Part shown: in pieces, positions 56 to 5,350 of the stretch
Numbering within the stretch: position 1 is the stretch's first letter
Layout of the letters: each line of letters opens with the position of its first letter
Source of the DNA: a virus
Lineage: Duplodnaviria; Heunggongvirae; Uroviricota; Caudoviricetes
Direction: 5' to 3' (one strand)
Virus record (IMG/VR): IMGVR_UViG_2734482540_000012
Length of the DNA: 5,350 bases
Program-made: the position numbers and the translations under genes
Notes under the pieces: model-generated
What the model saw: the letters and a program-made list of their open reading frames with translations, nothing else
The model's database searches: none
What the model was told of the DNA's origin: nothing

Positions 56-244
56 TTAAAAAAAGAACAAATGGTAGTGTCCGCTATTGCCAGTACACCT
101 CAGGGTATAAGGGGTTATGGCCACCGGACTACCAAACGGCTGCCAGCCCTCTTTCAGTTTATGTGTCAGCTTTTCCGCAAGATCTGACGGCGGCGCCGCC
201 CTGACAACATCATAGTGTTTAAATGCCATGGTTCTTTCCACCAT
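56..244 (-). CDS. small hypothetical protein, phage-associated (KEGWQPFG core; possibly DUF1737-like, family name from memory)
   Basis: Minus-strand ORF with in-frame ATGs at 244 and 229. The ATG at 229 (MAFKHYDVV...) follows GGTGGAAAGA, a possible weak SD, so the true start may be 229. Central motif ...KLKEGWQPFGSPVAI... resembles small prophage proteins I recall; no search possible. Confidence 0.4.
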   Translation of the reverse strand: MVERTMAFKHYDVVRAAPPSDLAEKLTHKLKEGWQPFGSPVAITPYTLRCTGNSGHYHLFFF

Positions 245-489: not shown

Positions 490-825
490 ATGAAGTGGAT
501 TGTGATTGATACAGTTATCCAGCCATCATGCGGAATATCTTTTTCAGTCATATGGAGTAAAATAAAATTAATAATCTGGTATCAATCGGATGCTTTCTTA
601 CCTCCTGAAAGTATATTTACACTGACTCACACAGGCATCATGCTCAATAACAAAGTGCTACCTGTAACCATTTACAACGTAGTACCATTCAATAAAACAT
701 TCTGGAATTCAATCAAAAATAGCCAGGAATGCCCTACAAATACAGATAACGTATTGAATGAATGCTTTAATAACCGTTGCACTCTGCAAATATGTCCTTA
801 TGGACTAAAACAACAAAGTCCATAA
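490..825 (+). CDS. hypothetical protein, AT-rich orphan, Cys-rich C-terminus
   Basis: ATG at 490 preceded by AAGGA (479-483) with a 6-nt spacer. 111 codons in visibly low-GC sequence, including 6 ATA codons. Four Cys in the last ~30 residues ([26 protein letters not shown]). Possible sigma70-like elements upstream (TTTACA at about 425-430). No family recognised. Confidence 0.4.
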
Positions 826-860
826 GGAGTTTACTCACATCTGACAAAATCAATATAAAC

Positions 861-880
861 AGCCCCTCCGGAGAGGGGCT
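861..880 (-). terminator. GC-rich hairpin (8-bp stem AGCCCCTC/GAGGGGCT, 4-nt loop); candidate minus-strand intrinsic terminator
   Basis: Perfect 8-bp stem seen directly. On the minus strand it is followed by GTTTATATTGATTTTG (T-rich). On the plus strand it is followed by GGAGAGTGGCGC (no T-tract), so termination is plausible only for leftward transcription. Confidence 0.3.
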
Positions 881-1272
881 GGAGAGTGGCGCTATGTGCC
901 ATTGCATGGTGCCGGGTGCCTCCCGGTGAATTCAGTACCAGCACCTGAATCCGCGATTATCCCATATACCTACTCGCTGATTGCCCCTCCGCACAGGGGG
1001 ATTCACCATGCCAGTTTCTTTTAACAAACTCCCCGCAAACCAGACAACAGTCAACCGCCTGAATTGTGAAGTATTTAAAAATTTCTCCCGCTAACTGATA
1101 CCCGGCTAACAGTCTGGCGTTTTCTTTTTCAGCAACGGGAAAGCAACAACCACCACACCCGCCACCAGCACACCGTCAGCCAGCACTGACATTATCCGGC
1201 TGCTGCAATGCCATTCACAAAAACAGTAAGCAATCACTTTTTACCGTAACAGGTGATAATCCAGATATGTAT

Positions 1273-1599
1273 CTACCCCAGATGAGTAATCCGAAGTTCA
1301 TCCATACCACAGGTCCTGGCTATTCTGTTGTACTCCTGAACAAGAGCAAATAATTCTGAATTAGCAACCATGAACTCATCGCAAACCCTCTGTATAGCAT
1401 CACTATTCAGAATAATAACGTCTCTTCCCGAAAGACGATCAGGAGTACAGAACAAAACTGTCAAACGGCTGAAGGCCTTTGCTCGTGCTGCATTGACTAT
1501 ATCAATACGCTGCCTAAGGATGAAACACCCCGACGCCTCATCAATATTCACTCTACCCACACCATATGAATGATAAATATTTAATGCTGAAAAAACCAT
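1273..1599 (-). CDS. hypothetical protein in the cargo position downstream of the phage tRNAs
   Basis: Minus-strand ORF; the track's longest form starts at a TTG (1626), first ATG is at 1599 (MVFSALNIYHSYG...). No convincing SD. 108 codons from the ATG include 3 AGA, 3 AGG and 3 ATA. Could be a remnant or non-coding; no family recognised. Confidence 0.35.
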   Translation of the reverse strand: MVFSALNIYHSYGVGRVNIDEASGCFILRQRIDIVNAARAKAFSRLTVLFCTPDRLSGRDVIILNSDAIQRVCDEFMVANSELFALVQEYNRIARTCGMDELRITHLG

Positions 1600-1736
1600 T
1601 AGACCGTATAACAAACACTCAATCAATACTTAACAGAACTTTTATTTTTGACAAACATAAAATATTTTCAACAATATCCTGAGCCAGGTATATTTCAGTA
1701 TAAGGCTCTGCCGGAAGGAATCTGGAAGAATGAATA

Positions 1737-1813
1737 TGGCGCGCTGTACTGGATTCGAACCAGTGACCGATTGCTTAGAAGGCAATTGCTCTGTCCGGCT
1801 GAGCTAACAACGC
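1737..1813 (-). tRNA. tRNA-Arg (anticodon UCU), CCA encoded
   Basis: Reverse complement reads GCGTTGT-TA-GCTC-AGCCGGACA-GAGC-A-ATTGC-CTTCTAA-GCAAT-CGGTC-ACTGG-TTCGAAT-CCAGT-ACAGCGC-G-CCA. 7-bp acceptor stem (one G.U), 4-bp D stem, 5-bp anticodon stem, loop CTTCTAA gives anticodon TCT, canonical TTCGAAT T-loop, encoded CCA. Resembles E. coli argU as I recall it; argN/argO-type phage tRNA. Confidence 0.9.
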
Positions 1814-1913
1814 TGAATACCGATAATGGACCGCCATCGGGGACCCGCCCCCGCACCAACAACCCTGTTATCGTGTCGTCTGCTCTTCCTGATAAGCTAA
1901 TGGCGGTTTGTGA

Positions 1914-1989
1914 TGGTGGCCCTTGCTGGATTTGAACCAGCGACCTGGCGATTATGAGTCGCTCGCTCTCACCACTGAGCTAAAGGGCC
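1914..1989 (-). tRNA. tRNA with CAU anticodon, most likely tRNA-Ile2 (lysidine, ileX/ileZ-like) rather than tRNA-Met
   Basis: Reverse complement reads GGCCCTT-TA-GCTC-AGTGGTGA-GAGC-G-AGCGA-CTCATAA-TCGCC-AGGTC-GCTGG-TTCAAAT-CCAGC-AAGGGCC-A-CCA. Full cloverleaf with one A.C mismatch at 27:43. Anticodon CAT. Very close to the E. coli ileX sequence as I recall it, and Stx-type lambdoid phages carry ileZ here. Ile versus Met cannot be settled from the anticodon alone. Confidence 0.85.
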
Positions 1990-2024: not shown

Positions 2025-2052
2025 CAATAAAAAACCCGCTCGGCGGCGGGTT
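2025..2052 (-). terminator. rho-independent terminator downstream of the Q-like gene (tR'-like)
   Basis: Minus-strand RNA would be AACCCGC-CGCCGA-GCGGG followed by UUUUUUAUUG. GC stem pairs 2035-2039 with 2046-2050 (extendable by two A.U pairs), and a 6-U run is encoded by plus-strand A's 2029-2034. Lies about 40 nt after the Q stop and about 35 nt before the tRNA-Ile 5' end. Confidence 0.55.
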
Positions 2053-2091: not shown

Positions 2092-2946
2092 TTATGACGA
2101 ATTTACCACAGATTCCGGAAAAATCAACCTAGTTACCTTTTTTAACTGCCGCTCAGCCCATGCTTCTTCAATATCAAACCGAGTCACCAGCGCATCATAG
2201 AATTTCTTAACTGTTTTTTCCCATGACGCGCGTGTTATCTGGTTTGTCACCTCGCATATAGCATTAAATGCCTCCGTTGATGGTAGTCTTTCATAGCCAC
2301 GACCACCACAACGCTGGCAGTCTCTGATAACAGGCATACCACGTTTTACCGACTCTTCACGATGAATGGCGACACCACGCCCACGGCAATCCTTACAGGC
2401 GGTGGAAACCTCACCCTTTCCGCCACACTCCGGACAGGCAACTTTTACCACCTCCCTGACTTTTTTCCATTCTTCCCAGTAAGACGGATACACACCTTTC
2501 GTACACTTTGCCCATACCGGCGGCTTACCATCCGGATACTGGACCTTGTTTGTAAAAACTACGCTTTCAATAAATTTTTCCCCATAGCAACAAGGGCACT
2601 GCTTTTTACTCGCTGCGCTGCGGGCATAATCCTCAAAAGCGTACGAAGCCATAATGCGCATCACTACCGGTTTTATTTCTGCCGGAAGTTTTCTCAACGC
2701 CGCCACACGATCGCACCGACTGAGTGCATAATCTGCCAGTAATTCTGTTGCCCGCGCCCTGTCATTCATACTGATGCCCATTTTCCCCAGGAACGCAGAA
2801 AACCCCATCTCAGCCCGATTCTGTGTCATGCCCTGCGCGGCCATCACATCAGTGATACTCAGCGCATCTTTTGACGTTGAGGCCGATGCATCGGTCAGGC
2901 AAGGGGATTTTGGGGAGTAGTATTTCGGTAAATCTTCCAGTTTCAT
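2092..2946 (-). CDS. putative late antiterminator Q-family protein with DnaJ-type CxxCxGxG zinc-finger repeats
   Basis: 284-aa ORF. Its ATG overlaps the rusA stop (ATGA). It sits immediately downstream of rusA and upstream of terminator and phage tRNAs, the canonical Q position. Contains CPCCYGEK, CPECGGKG, CKDCRGRG and CQRCGGRG. Family assignment from context and memory, no search. Confidence 0.7.
   Translation of the reverse strand: MKLEDLPKYYSPKSPCLTDASASTSKDALSITDVMAAQGMTQNRAEMGFSAFLGKMGISMNDRARATELLADYALSRCDRVAALRKLPAEIKPVVMRIMASYAFEDYARSAASKKQCPCCYGEKFIESVVFTNKVQYPDGKPPVWAKCTKGVYPSYWEEWKKVREVVKVACPECGGKGEVSTACKDCRGRGVAIHREESVKRGMPVIRDCQRCGGRGYERLPSTEAFNAICEVTNQITRASWEKTVKKFYDALVTRFDIEEAWAERQLKKVTRLIFPESVVNSS
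2100..2127 (-). promoter_or_regulatory. candidate late promoter (pR'-like) overlapping the 3' end of the Q-like gene
   Basis: Minus-strand TTGATT (plus 2122-2127), 16-nt spacer, TAAATT (plus 2100-2105). A start near the Q stop codon would give a short roughly 50-60 nt transcript ending at the 2025-2052 terminator, analogous to lambdoid pR'-qut-tR'. Pattern match only. Confidence 0.2.
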
Positions 2947-3694: not shown

Positions 3695-3850
3695 TAGACT
3701 GGCCCCCTGAATCTCCAGACAACCAGTATCACTTAAATAAGTGATAGTCTTAATACTAGTTTTTAGACTAGTCATTGGAGTACAGATGATTGATGTCTTA
3801 GGGCCGGAGAAACGCAGACGGCGTACCACACAGGAAAAGATCGCAATTGT
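3695..3850 (+). mobile_element. IS2 left-end fragment (positions 1-156 of IS2, including IRL and the first 21 codons of insC)
   Basis: Begins TAGACTGGCCCCCTGAATCTCC, the IS2 left terminus as I recall it. All 156 bp are identical to 4361..4516 in this window. Identity stops abruptly after GCAATTGT at 3850. Confidence 0.85.
3786..3850 (+). pseudogene. insC: insC remnant (first ~21 codons of IS2 OrfA, then read-through into IS21-family sequence)
   Basis: ATG at 3786 is at the same offset (+91) from the IS2 terminus as the insC ATG at 4452 in the second copy. Encodes [22 protein letters not shown], then diverges. Confidence 0.6.
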
Positions 3851-4394
<544 letters not shown>

Positions 4395-4451
4395 TCACTT
4401 AAATAAGTGATAGTCTTAATACTAGTTTTTAGACTAGTCATTGGAGTACAG

Positions 4452-4817
4452 ATGATTGATGTCTTAGGGCCGGAGAAACGCAGACGGCGTACCACACAGG
4501 AAAAGATCGCAATTGTTCAGCAGAGCTTTGAACCGGGGATGACGGTCTCCCTCGTTGCCCGGCAACATGGTGTAGCAGCCAGCCAGTTATTTCTCTGGCG
4601 TAAGCAATACCAGGAAGGAAGTCTTACTGCTGTCGCCGCCGGAGAACAGGTTGTTCCTGCCTCTGAACTTGCTGCCGCCATGAAGCAGATTAAAGAACTC
4701 CAGCGCCTGCTCGGCAAGAAAACGATGGAAAATGAACTCCTCAAAGAAGCCGTTGAATATGGACGGGCAAAAAAGTGGATAGCGCACGCGCCCTTATTGC
4801 CCGGGGATGGGGAGTAA
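4452..4817 (+). CDS. insC: IS2 transposase OrfA (InsC), helix-turn-helix DNA-binding component
   Basis: ATG at 4452 ([41 protein letters not shown]...), stop TAA at 4815-4817. Matches IS2 InsC from memory. The ORF track begins earlier at an in-frame GTG (4407). Confidence 0.9.
4769..4775 (+). other. A AAA AAG slippery heptamer: programmed -1 ribosomal frameshift site giving the OrfAB (InsCD) fusion transposase
   Basis: AAAAAAG at 4769-4775 near the end of insC, where the insD frame opens (GTG at 4775). A6G motifs are the established frameshift signal of IS3-family elements. Confidence 0.6.
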
Positions 4818-5289
4818 GCTTAGTCAGCCGTTGTCTCCGGGTGTCGCGTGCGCAGTTGCACGTCATTCTCAGACGAACCGATGACTGGATGGATGGCCGC
4901 CGCAGTCGTCACACTGATGATACGGATGTGCTTCTCCGTATACACCATGTTATCGGAGAGCTGCCCACGTATGGTTATCGTCGGGTATGGGCGCTGCTTC
5001 GCAGACAGGCAGAACTTGATGGTATGCCTGCGATCAATGCCAAACATGTTTACCGGATCATGCGCCAGAATGCGCTGTTGCTTGAGCGAAAACCTGCTGT
5101 ACCGCCATCGAAACGGGCACATACAGGCAGAGTGGCCGTGAAAGAAAGCAATCAGCGATGGTGCTCTGACGGGTTCGAGTTCTGCTGTGATAACGGAGAG
5201 AGACTGCGTGTCACGTTCGCGCTGGACTGCTGTGATCGTGAGGCACTGCACTGGGCGGTGACTATCGGCGGCTTCAACAGTGAAACAGT
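4775..5289 (+). pseudogene. insD: IS2 transposase OrfB (InsD), 3'-truncated (about 171 of about 301 codons retained)
   Basis: Frame encodes [21 protein letters not shown]...[22 protein letters not shown] (track shows M at the GTG), then leaves IS2 at 5289 and ends SAPVI-stop at 5308. The InsD region downstream of ...NSETV (in my recollection of IS2, continuing ...QDVMLGAVERRF... and the DDE catalytic region) is absent from the window. Confidence 0.85.
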
Positions 5290-5350
5290 GTCAGCGCCAG
5301 TGATATAAGACGGTAATTCGCCATTTGGATTGTCCGCTCCACCCAACATG

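Follow-up and report, generated by a model that had tools for sequence, protein, structure and literature searches.

The match between the tRNA genes of this prophage region and the rare codons of the neighboring genes is most probably ordinary, as these codons occur at the level given by base composition and the tRNAs form a widespread cassette that is not tied to these genes. The window (the whole stretch of 5,350 nucleotides analyzed here) corresponds to the part of a decayed lambdoid prophage that runs from Q to lysis, with the prophage part bounded by IS600 on one side and by IS2/IS21 on the other. The first-pass annotation had proposed that tRNA-Arg(UCU) and tRNA-Ile(CAU) are kept to support the expression of AT-rich cargo, namely, the open reading frames called here ORF A (1273-1599, minus strand) and ORF B (490-825, plus strand). 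The evidence does not support the view that the tRNAs are kept for this cargo in particular. The features of the window are the following:

56..244, minus strand: DUF1737 gene (Pfam PF08410, E = 1.5e-15)
490..825, plus strand: ORF B, prophage-borne IraM homolog (NCBIfam NF007393)
851..1040, minus strand: STnc100-family prophage sRNA (Rfam RF02076, E = 1.5e-30)
1106..1237, minus strand: small DUF3927/TciB-like membrane ORF, 43 aa (phrog_1470, E = 7.8e-13)
1273..1599, minus strand: ORF A, small phage protein (full-length match to phrog_2873, E = 2.8e-70)
1737..1813, minus strand: argO, tRNA-Arg(UCU), reading AGA and, by wobble, AGG (ARAGORN, Rfam)
1827..1906, minus strand: decayed argN, pseudogene of tRNA-Arg(UCG) (local alignment to Lahn2 argN)
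1914..1989, minus strand: ileZ, CAU anticodon, predicted Ile2 (lysidine) type, reading AUA (ARAGORN, Rfam)
2033..2052, minus strand: tR'-like intrinsic-terminator-like hairpin and T run, between Q and the tRNAs (terminator scan)
2092..2946, minus strand: late antiterminator Q gene, 284 aa (Pfam PF03589 Antiterm, E = 7e-55)
2100..2127, minus strand: putative late promoter, pR'-like, TTGATT, 16 nt, TAAATT (read from the sequence)

On a single strand, Q (2946-2092) is followed by the terminator (2052-2033), the tRNAs (1989-1737), and then the cargo and lysis genes, a layout also present in 042, mEp460, EDL933, and Lys12581Vzw. In the alignment with the 273-aa allele of Escherichia coli 042, an 8-nt indel close to the 3' end gives Q 11 additional codons. 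The extended end of Q overlaps the pR'-like site, which reaches 8/12, under the threshold of the promoter scan, and which we take to be a late promoter by analogy with lambda pR'. The tR'-like hairpin has 7 pairs, 5/7 of them GC, followed by TTTTTTATT (terminator scan). Farther downstream, the counterpart of the 43-aa ORF in E. coli 042 is labeled by RefSeq as a DUF3927 family protein, and the STnc100 sRNA, which matched the full model (1-206; 132.4 bits, gathering score 47), closes in a strong terminator (881-860, terminator scan). The 3' end of the DUF1737 gene is cut off by the IS600 end (window 1 to ~110); positions 1-110/120 are 96-99% identical to IS600 copies, and homology to other prophages starts at position 100.

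The two tRNA genes are the remains of the standard lambdoid/Stx-phage ileZ-argN-argO cassette, in which argN has decayed. Their placement in the first-pass annotation, tRNA-Arg(UCU) at 1737-1813 and the CAU tRNA at 1914-1989, both on the minus strand, was accurate, as was the assignment of the pair to AUA and AGA; the reading of AGG is taken from established knowledge, since it goes through U34 wobble, as for E. coli argU. ARAGORN calls the CAU tRNA Met, and RefSeq mostly calls it tRNA-Ile. It is identical to K-12 ileX at 68/76 positions and carries C4:G69 and C5:G68, and the 4:69 and 5:68 pairs are identity pairs for E. coli TilS (PMC11947777). We thus assign it, from its base pairs, to the Ile2 (lysidine) identity. 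This ileZ is identical over the overlap to that of the Stx phage Lahn2 and also identical to the copies in two further loci (L002 and L004), and argO matches the annotated Lahn2 argO at 76/77 positions. No tRNA was detected in the 100-nt ileZ-argO spacer by ARAGORN or Rfam (E <= 1), and the argN remnant, recognized only by direct alignment, keeps both of its ends around a scrambled middle; argN is intact at the same position in L031 and L051. When argN is included, the full cassette spans the five rarest host codons (AGG, AGA, AUA, CGG, and CGA).

The ileZ-argN-argO cluster of Lahn2 (AM072972), also found in the Stx2 phage Lys12581Vzw, has the same tRNAs in the same order and on the same strand as here, and it likewise stands after Q and ahead of the lysis/cargo region. 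In contrast, the Stx-phage cluster retains the argN that is a decayed remnant in the window, and the cargo is stx or NanS-p in Stx-type phages but ORF A, DUF3927, STnc100, and iraM here. Likewise, Q is of the PF03589 type (284 aa) in the window, whereas 933W-type phages have a 144-aa Q. A full-text literature search returned no paper with ileZ, argN, and argO together, and "ileZ" alone retrieved unrelated papers.

The codon counts on which the proposal was built are correct. ORF A has 3 AGA, 3 AGG, and 3 ATA in 108 sense codons, with AGR making up 6/11 Arg codons, and ORF B has 6 ATA in 111 codons (6/13 Ile codons); in the 39 core genes used as the host reference, no other sense codons are as rare as AGG, AGA, and ATA. 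Taking as the phage reference a phage carrying the same block, the frequency of AGA/AGG/ATA per 1000 codons is 83 in ORF A, 19.2 in the phage, and 3.8 in the host core genes, making ORF A enriched against both the host core (P = 5e-10) and the phage (P = 2.5e-4); these codons are ~20 times denser than in host core genes and 4 times denser than in the phage. Nevertheless, whether the enrichment exceeds chance depends on the null chosen, and compared with its own composition, ORF A is not enriched (dinucleotide shuffle mean 6.65, sd 2.2, P(>=9) = 0.20; mononucleotide shuffle P = 0.10), nor is ORF B (shuffle mean 6.4, P(>=6) = 0.65). The same ORF A stretch holds 8 such triplets in frame +2 and 13 in one antisense frame versus the 9 in frame. 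The AT-rich noncoding stretches of the window contain 5.3-10.2 such triplets per 100 positions, a range that includes ORF A (8.3 per 100 codons) and ORF B (5.4). Thus, the enrichment in cognate codons stands against the host core and the phage and disappears against local base composition, whether taken from shuffles, other frames, or spacers. A similar richness of AT-rich noncoding DNA is precisely the observation that the first-pass annotation had named as reducing the enrichment to a reflection of base composition.

A composition-normalized observed/expected ratio (O/E) places these genes on a common scale. The host core scores 0.08 and the phage 0.34, whereas ORF A scores 1.59 and the iraM-like ORF 0.82; the ratio reaches 1.11 in the tRNA-less K-12 iraM, 1.26-1.35 in Stx2A, and 1.06 in the ORF A homolog of L005. 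Two observations on this scale go against the composition view: among the 40 annotated mEp460_ev081 genes that reach 80 codons, none attains the value of ORF A (maximum, 0.85), and a second AT-rich gene placed immediately behind the cassette, Stx2A, behaves like ORF A.

These codons have a meaning only if ORF A is translated. The comparative evidence indicates that it is a real phage gene of 92 aa, under purifying selection and left unannotated by RefSeq in over a thousand complete E. coli genomes. The conserved core (1273-1551) encodes 92 aa from a GTG start at 1551, and distant homologs do not conserve the 16 codons added by the ATG start at 1599. Against two lineages with 67-72% nucleotide identity, dN/dS is 0.26-0.27, with no indels over the 92 codons, about two times as many differences at third positions as at positions 1 and 2, and 4-13 stops in the other frames of the region. 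The 83 near-identical copies, all free of stops and gaps, show 7 synonymous and 6 nonsynonymous variants, and ORF A varies less than any other segment of the block. The distant relatives are collinear, 91-95 aa long, and as low as 33% in identity, one of them in Citrobacter (the alignment of related loci has 5 members). ORF A also matches over its full length the phrog_2873 family, 92-aa proteins of the enterobacterial prophage Q-lysis region that occupy the same slot, before TerB, DUF3927, and holin; in its diverged lineages, the gene comes after a DNA methyltransferase and a YdeO/GadX-like AraC-family regulator, whereas ORF A lies directly after the tRNAs. The AlphaFold2 model is confident (pLDDT 84.8) and predicts a helix, beta-hairpin, helix fold.

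It would be very surprising, in view of this evidence, if ORF A were a chance reading frame in an AT-rich spacer, with meaningless "codons." Such a reading would fit the lack of any RefSeq/PGAP annotation at the locus in E. coli 042 or in 36/36 of the near-identical matches listed, the absence of a significant Pfam or NCBIfam family, the weak Shine-Dalgarno sequences before both candidate starts, and a rare-codon content at the composition level, but not the constrained substitutions, the third-position bias, the polymorphism free of stops and gaps, the collinear homologs, the phrog_2873 match, or the confident model. An exhaustive profile search with ORF A recovered 19 representatives only, all of them small proteins, and a Foldseek search of the model against the PDB gave generic helical-hairpin matches only (best E = 0.26), among which prefoldin-beta-like and TraM-like topologies were not significant. 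A terminator-like hairpin lies inside ORF A (1437-1419) with only 3 GC pairs, in a scan that gave 4 sites versus 2.1 expected by chance. A programmed pause at conserved rare-codon positions of ORF A was also considered and rejected, as the positions differ among homologs.

ORF B is a predicted IraM-family anti-adaptor. Its residues 1-110 match NF007393 with 162 bits (cutoff, 121), and RefSeq labels it "anti-adapter protein IraM." IraM is an anti-adaptor that protects RpoS from RssB. K-12 IraM (YcgW) is encoded next to the end of the e14 prophage, whereas ORF B lies within the late region of a lambdoid prophage and is oriented convergently to the late operon. The two are otherwise alike in length (111 aa in ORF B versus 107 aa), GC content (0.35 versus 0.34), and ATA share of Ile codons (0.46 versus 0.44).

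The distribution of the cassette bears on the claim that selection keeps the tRNA pair specifically for the translation of ORF A and the iraM homolog, which we regard as very unlikely. The anticodons do fit the codons, ORF A starts 138 nt downstream of the tRNAs on the same strand and has the highest rare-codon density of the genes compared, and ileZ/argO are nearly always followed by ORF A at a fixed distance in 80 near-identical viral contigs. However, the linked block is a single one, ~99% identical among carriers, so the linkage provides no independent evidence; ORF A is linked to the tRNAs because a block of ~1.9 kb is inherited as a unit. The tRNA block occurs at 7,597 places in 3,061/5,426 E. 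coli genomes and ORF A at 1,488 places in 1,315 genomes, making the cassette five times more widespread than the gene it was said to serve. Similarly, the same argO was found in 71 viral contigs with 14 different downstream contexts, ORF A being the neighbor in 17/71, and cargo O/E values across these contexts lie between 0.00 and about 1.5. In EDL933, this block is followed by a TerB-family gene in which only 1 of 143 codons is rare (O/E 0.11), and other cargo in the slot is also poor in these codons (TerB-family genes, 0.00-0.31; DUF1737-esterase, 0.24). Conversely, no tRNA lies between Q and the diverged ORF A homologs in four prophages (L005, L214, L216, and L217). Across independent prophages, no consistent co-occurrence of the tRNAs with rare-codon-rich neighbors was found. 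For ORF B, the proposal is also weakened by the strand, as iraM lies opposite to the tRNAs, and by its K-12 relative, which has more ATA (8 in 107 codons) and no linked tRNA. The share of the demand is likewise small, with ORF A holding 9/~251 of such codons of the phage (3.6%) and both ORFs together 15 of the ~260 cognate codons that such a phage has. With the enrichment itself within composition, the idea that the tRNAs are kept for this AT-rich cargo finds no support.

The causality could also be reversed, with co-transcribed ileZ/argO relaxing selection on AGA/AGG/ATA just downstream and genes there drifting to, or tolerating, the composition level. This is an unlikely explanation, although it would account for the O/E of ORF A (1.59) and Stx2A (1.26-1.35) against 0.34 in the rest of the phage and for the homolog comparison, in which the ORF A core beside the tRNAs has 8/92 rare codons and three other lineages have 5, 3, and 1. 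Pooling the homologs without an adjacent argO/ileZ pair (9/279) gives a Fisher P of 0.04, uncorrected for kinship, and from this difference, a local effect of the tRNAs on ORF A codon choice may exist. Conditioned on amino acid, though, the difference is not significant (P = 0.22 and 0.65, four lineages only). The TerB-family and DUF1737-esterase genes avoid these codons in the same position, and AT-rich genes without the tRNAs, such as K-12 iraM and the L005 homolog, are equally nonavoiding. A further reading is a timing gate, in which the co-transcribed tRNAs would control translation of the AT-rich genes just after the cassette (ORF A; Stx2A). Such genes would have AGA/AGG/ATA at the composition level or higher; their translation would be poor in the lysogen and turn efficient only once Q read-through brings a burst of ileZ/argO. 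We find this scenario highly improbable; if true, it would make ORF A an unannotated late protein of 92 aa that is under selection and has its dosage controlled by the neighboring tRNAs.

Composition-level codons beside a widespread cassette therefore remain our preferred reading of the pairing. The cassette, directly after Q, a pR'-like promoter, and a tR'-like terminator, would form the head of the late operon, and we infer both its co-transcription from pR' and any tRNA effect on the translation of its neighbors. The slot downstream would be variable and gather foreign AT-rich accessory genes, in the window ORF A, the DUF3927 peptide, and the STnc100 sRNA, plus the iraM homolog on the other strand. 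The AGA/AGG/ATA level of ORF A and iraM would then be that of AT-rich coding DNA without selection against these codons. If the tRNAs matter in translation, they would serve the whole phage, with its ~250 such codons at five times the host density.

Both the compensation of codon usage by phage tRNAs and the ileZ-argN-argO cassette are already known. Stx-phage tRNAs were reportedly proposed earlier to support stx expression, and the Stx2A gene of that precedent shows the same lack of avoidance (O/E 1.26-1.35). General codon compensation, plausible here, is described in the model of Bailly-Bechet, Vergassola, and Rocha (2007; PMC1987346, as cited in PMC7946995), and the excess of cognate codons in the phage over the host core (19.2 versus 3.8 per 1000) agrees with it. 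This model, as presented in the citing source, concerns the whole phage genome and not a neighbor gene, and its neighbor-specific form fails the distribution tests made here. Moreover, lambdoid phages with 2-3 tRNA genes and those without showed no difference in codon adaptation (PMC4631060).

Were phage tRNAs tuned to particular cargo genes, the expression of virulence and stress genes carried by prophages, for example those for Stx and IraM-like RpoS stabilizers, could be approached through them. The evidence points in the opposite direction, toward a generic, widely shared cassette module whose neighbors carry rare codons as a by-product of base composition. The useful outcomes are a clean test of the cargo-tuning idea, by the refuting observation that the first reading had itself named, and the recognition of ORF A as a real phage gene under purifying selection missed by RefSeq annotation.

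The segment is a prophage remnant with insertion sequences at both boundaries, and its features are as follows.

1 to ~110: IS600 end
244-56, minus strand: DUF1737 gene, truncated by the IS600 end
490-825, plus strand: ORF B, 111 aa, convergent, the sole plus-strand gene
1040-851, minus strand: full-length STnc100-family prophage sRNA (Rfam RF02076, 132 bits), with a strong terminator at 881-860
1237-1106, minus strand: 43-aa DUF3927/TciB-like ORF
1599 or 1551 to 1273, minus strand: ORF A
1813-1737, minus strand: tRNA-Arg(UCU), argO
1906-1827, minus strand: decayed argN (tRNA-Arg UCG) within the 100-nt spacer between the tRNAs, by alignment to Stx phage Lahn2
1989-1914, minus strand: CAU-anticodon tRNA, ileZ
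2052-2033, minus strand: terminator-like hairpin and T run (tR'-like)
2946-2092, minus strand: late antiterminator Q (PF03589, E = 7e-55)
3317-2943, minus strand: RusA (PF05866)
3574-3317, minus strand: 85-aa ORF
3695-5350: IS2 sequence, one 156-nt end of which is duplicated, plus an IstB fragment of IS21 type

The two copies of the IS2 end (3695-3850 and 4361-4516, 100% identical) flank the IstB fragment (3909-4388), and IS2 insC/insD follow. The block at ~100-2100 is found at 99.3-99.5% identity in Escherichia coli 042, ST131 strains and many others, and positions 903-2100 at 99.2% in the functional phage mEp460_ev081. Records from Shigella sonnei and E. coli name the exact ORF A protein, so the source genome may be Shigella-like and IS-rich. 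A plus-strand ORF at 896-1024, a partial hypothetical protein in the RefSeq annotation of E. coli 042, overlaps the STnc100 sRNA and is probably spurious.

The tRNAs correspond to a cassette known from lambdoid and Stx phages, ileZ-argN-argO, but with argN decayed. The first-pass annotation had read the CAU tRNA as isoleucine-specific, and this assignment is confirmed by its identity to the annotated ileZ of Lahn2 and its agreement with K-12 ileX at 68/76 positions. ARAGORN labels it Met, and most RefSeq annotation gives tRNA-Ile. It carries C4:G69 and C5:G68, and the 4:69 and 5:68 pairs are identity elements used by E. coli TilS (PMC11947777). The UCU tRNA matches Lahn2 argO at 76/77 positions. 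In the decayed argN, the acceptor and T-arm ends are intact and the middle is scrambled; this decay is polymorphic, as viral contigs L031 and L051 hold an intact copy at the same spot. In two further contigs (L049 and L062), ARAGORN finds only the CAU tRNA, standing where argO normally lies relative to ORF A.

AGG, AGA and ATA had been called the rarest E. coli codons, and they do rank lowest among the sense codons of 39 core genes from host sample L009 (0.5, 0.8 and 2.4 per 1000, respectively), with CGG (2.6) and CGA (2.7) next. AGG would be read by tRNA-Arg(UCU) through wobble, as is established for E. coli argU. Thus, the intact three-tRNA cassette (CAU-Ile2, UCG and UCU; contigs L006 and L010) reads the five rarest host codons.

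The codon counts behind the proposal that the tRNA pair is kept for the adjoining ORFs were exact: ORF A has 3 AGA, 3 AGG and 3 ATA in 108 codons, with AGR at 6 of 11 Arg codons, and ORF B has ATA at 6 of 111 codons and 6 of 13 Ile. From its GTG start, ORF A holds 2 AGA, 3 AGG and 3 ATA in 92 codons. Together, the three codons reach 83 per 1000 in ORF A and 54 in ORF B, against 3.8 in host core genes and 19.2 in mEp460_ev081 (52 CDS; structural genes 10.6, early and lysis regions ~31). The enrichment in ORF A (9/108) exceeds chance against the gene-level baselines, with binomial P values of 5e-10 for the host rate and 2.5e-4 for the phage rate; against the most AT-rich phage genes, P is 0.18.

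Beyond base composition, there is no enrichment. Dinucleotide-preserving shuffles of ORF A gave 6.65 +/- 2.2 rare codons (P(>=9) = 0.20) and mononucleotide shuffles gave P = 0.10, with no excess in either; nor was there one in ORF B (shuffle mean 6.4, P(>=6) = 0.65). Conditioned on the amino acid, AGR among the Arg codons of ORF A (6/11) did not depart from the composition expectation of 0.44 (P = 0.34), nor did ATA among Ile codons in ORF A (3/10 versus 0.33) or ORF B (6/13 versus 0.43). Read in other frames, the ORF A stretch contains 8 and 13 such triplets, and AT-rich intergenic stretches contain 5.3 to 10.2 per 100 positions. Taken together, this is the result that the first-pass annotation had itself said would refute its proposal. 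It is important to consider that genes normally use these codons less than composition would predict, with observed/expected (O/E) ratios of 0.08 for host genes and 0.34 for the phage. ORF A (1.59), Stx2A (1.26-1.35), K-12 iraM (1.11) and ORF B (0.82) show no such avoidance. Because none of 40 phage genes with 80 codons or more exceeds 0.85, ORF A is extreme for a gene, yet in a manner general to AT-rich accessory genes.

The distribution of the cassette also argues against its retention for these neighbours. The tRNA block (1737-1989) occurs at 7,597 places in 3,061 of 5,426 complete E. coli genomes, and the ORF A region at 1,488 places in 1,315 of them. In 71 IMG/VR contigs that share this argO and extend far enough downstream, 14 distinct contexts follow argO, and ORF A follows directly in 17. 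The varied cargo includes a DUF1737-esterase fusion (O/E 0.24), Stx2A (1.35), TerB-family genes (0.31 and 0.00) and a holin-like ORF (0.60). In EDL933, the tRNA block is 97.6% identical, and the TerB-family gene after it has a single rare codon among 143. The tight linkage of ORF A to the tRNAs in 80 viral contigs is not a repeated independent association, since these represent one block at ~99% identity. ORF A supplies 9 of the ~251 cognate codons in a block-carrying phage.

Diverged homologues of ORF A also occur away from the tRNAs. Four loci (L005, L214, L216 and L217) carry one in a prophage without any tRNA between Q and the gene, L004 has ileZ and argN(UCG) 2.2 kb upstream, and the only tRNA near the Citrobacter homologue is a tRNA-Thr at a distance of 2.2 kb. 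Between homologues, the positions of the rare codons are not conserved. Counts in four related lineages are 8, 5, 3 and 1, with the most in the window's lineage, beside argO and ileZ (Fisher P = 0.04 versus the pooled others), a difference that vanishes once Arg and Ile content is taken into account (P = 0.22 and 0.65). Throughout the diverged lineages, the 92-aa gene is found directly downstream of a 241-242-aa YdeO/GadX-like AraC-family regulator (L004, 4323-5048; L214, 3969-4694; L216, 5142-5870), itself preceded by a DNA methyltransferase. This constant adjacency suggests that the two genes form a functional pair, and the regulator is absent from the window's lineage. TerB and DUF3927 genes lie downstream in L216 and L217, with a holin too in L216.

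ORF A itself behaves, on sequence comparison, as a coding sequence under purifying selection. Two diverged lineages (67-72% nucleotide and 60-65% protein identity) keep exactly 92 codons without indels, with a dN/dS of 0.26-0.27 and twice as many changes at third positions as at first or second ones; the other frames contain 4-13 stops. Across 83 near-identical copies, ORF A varies less than any other segment of the block, with 13 haplotypes, 7 synonymous and 6 nonsynonymous variants, no stops and no gaps (pN/pS of ~0.25, by our arithmetic from roughly 62 synonymous and 214 nonsynonymous sites). The conserved gene is 1273-1551, since complete distant relatives of 91-95 aa are collinear with the version starting at the GTG at 1551; the 16-codon extension up to the ATG at 1599 lacks conservation. 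ORF A matches phrog_2873 (E = 2.8e-70), and an exhaustive profile search of 1.84 billion proteins recovered only 19 representatives. Its AlphaFold2 model (pLDDT 84.8) predicts two long helices with a short beta-hairpin between them, for which a PDB search gave nothing significant (best E = 0.26). No RefSeq/PGAP annotation of ORF A was found in E. coli 042 or the 36 near-identical matches listed.

ORF B scores above the cutoff of the curated IraM model NF007393 (162 versus 121 bits) and is annotated as IraM in RefSeq. Its convergent transcription means that it and the tRNAs cannot be on one transcript. K-12 iraM uses ATA at 8 of 107 codons without any linked tRNA. It directly adjoins the e14 prophage end, a position consistent with a phage origin of the IraM family.

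In its neighbour-specific form, the tRNA-codon pairing fails on both composition and distribution. Phage tRNAs match codons that phages use more often than their hosts do (Bailly-Bechet et al. 2007, as related in PMC7946995), and this general idea applies to the cassette here. A putative pR'-like promoter (TTGATT, 16 nt, TAAATT at 2127-2100, assigned by analogy and scoring under the scan threshold) lies upstream of the tRNAs, the tR'-like terminator at 2052-2033 separates the two, and cargo and lysis genes lie downstream. Q has lost the stop codon of its 273-aa E. coli 042 counterpart through an 8-nt indel, so it is 11 codons longer and runs across the putative -35 and -10 (2092-2127, minus strand). 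The tRNAs could possibly have a promoter of their own, for which TTGCGG, 17 nt, TATTAT at 2027-1999 is a weak candidate. In the simplest reading, Q-dependent read-through would produce the tRNAs together with all late messages, and they would help the whole phage to decode the codons that are rarest in the host. The adjoining ORFs are AT-rich accessory genes occupying a variable slot, their rare codons most likely reflecting composition without codon selection. A weak and unproven hint is that ORF A and Stx2A, the genes directly following the cassette, show the least avoidance of rare codons. As a finding, this pairing is ordinary and of a kind already known, and the remaining interest lies in ORF A as a conserved small phage gene without RefSeq annotation.
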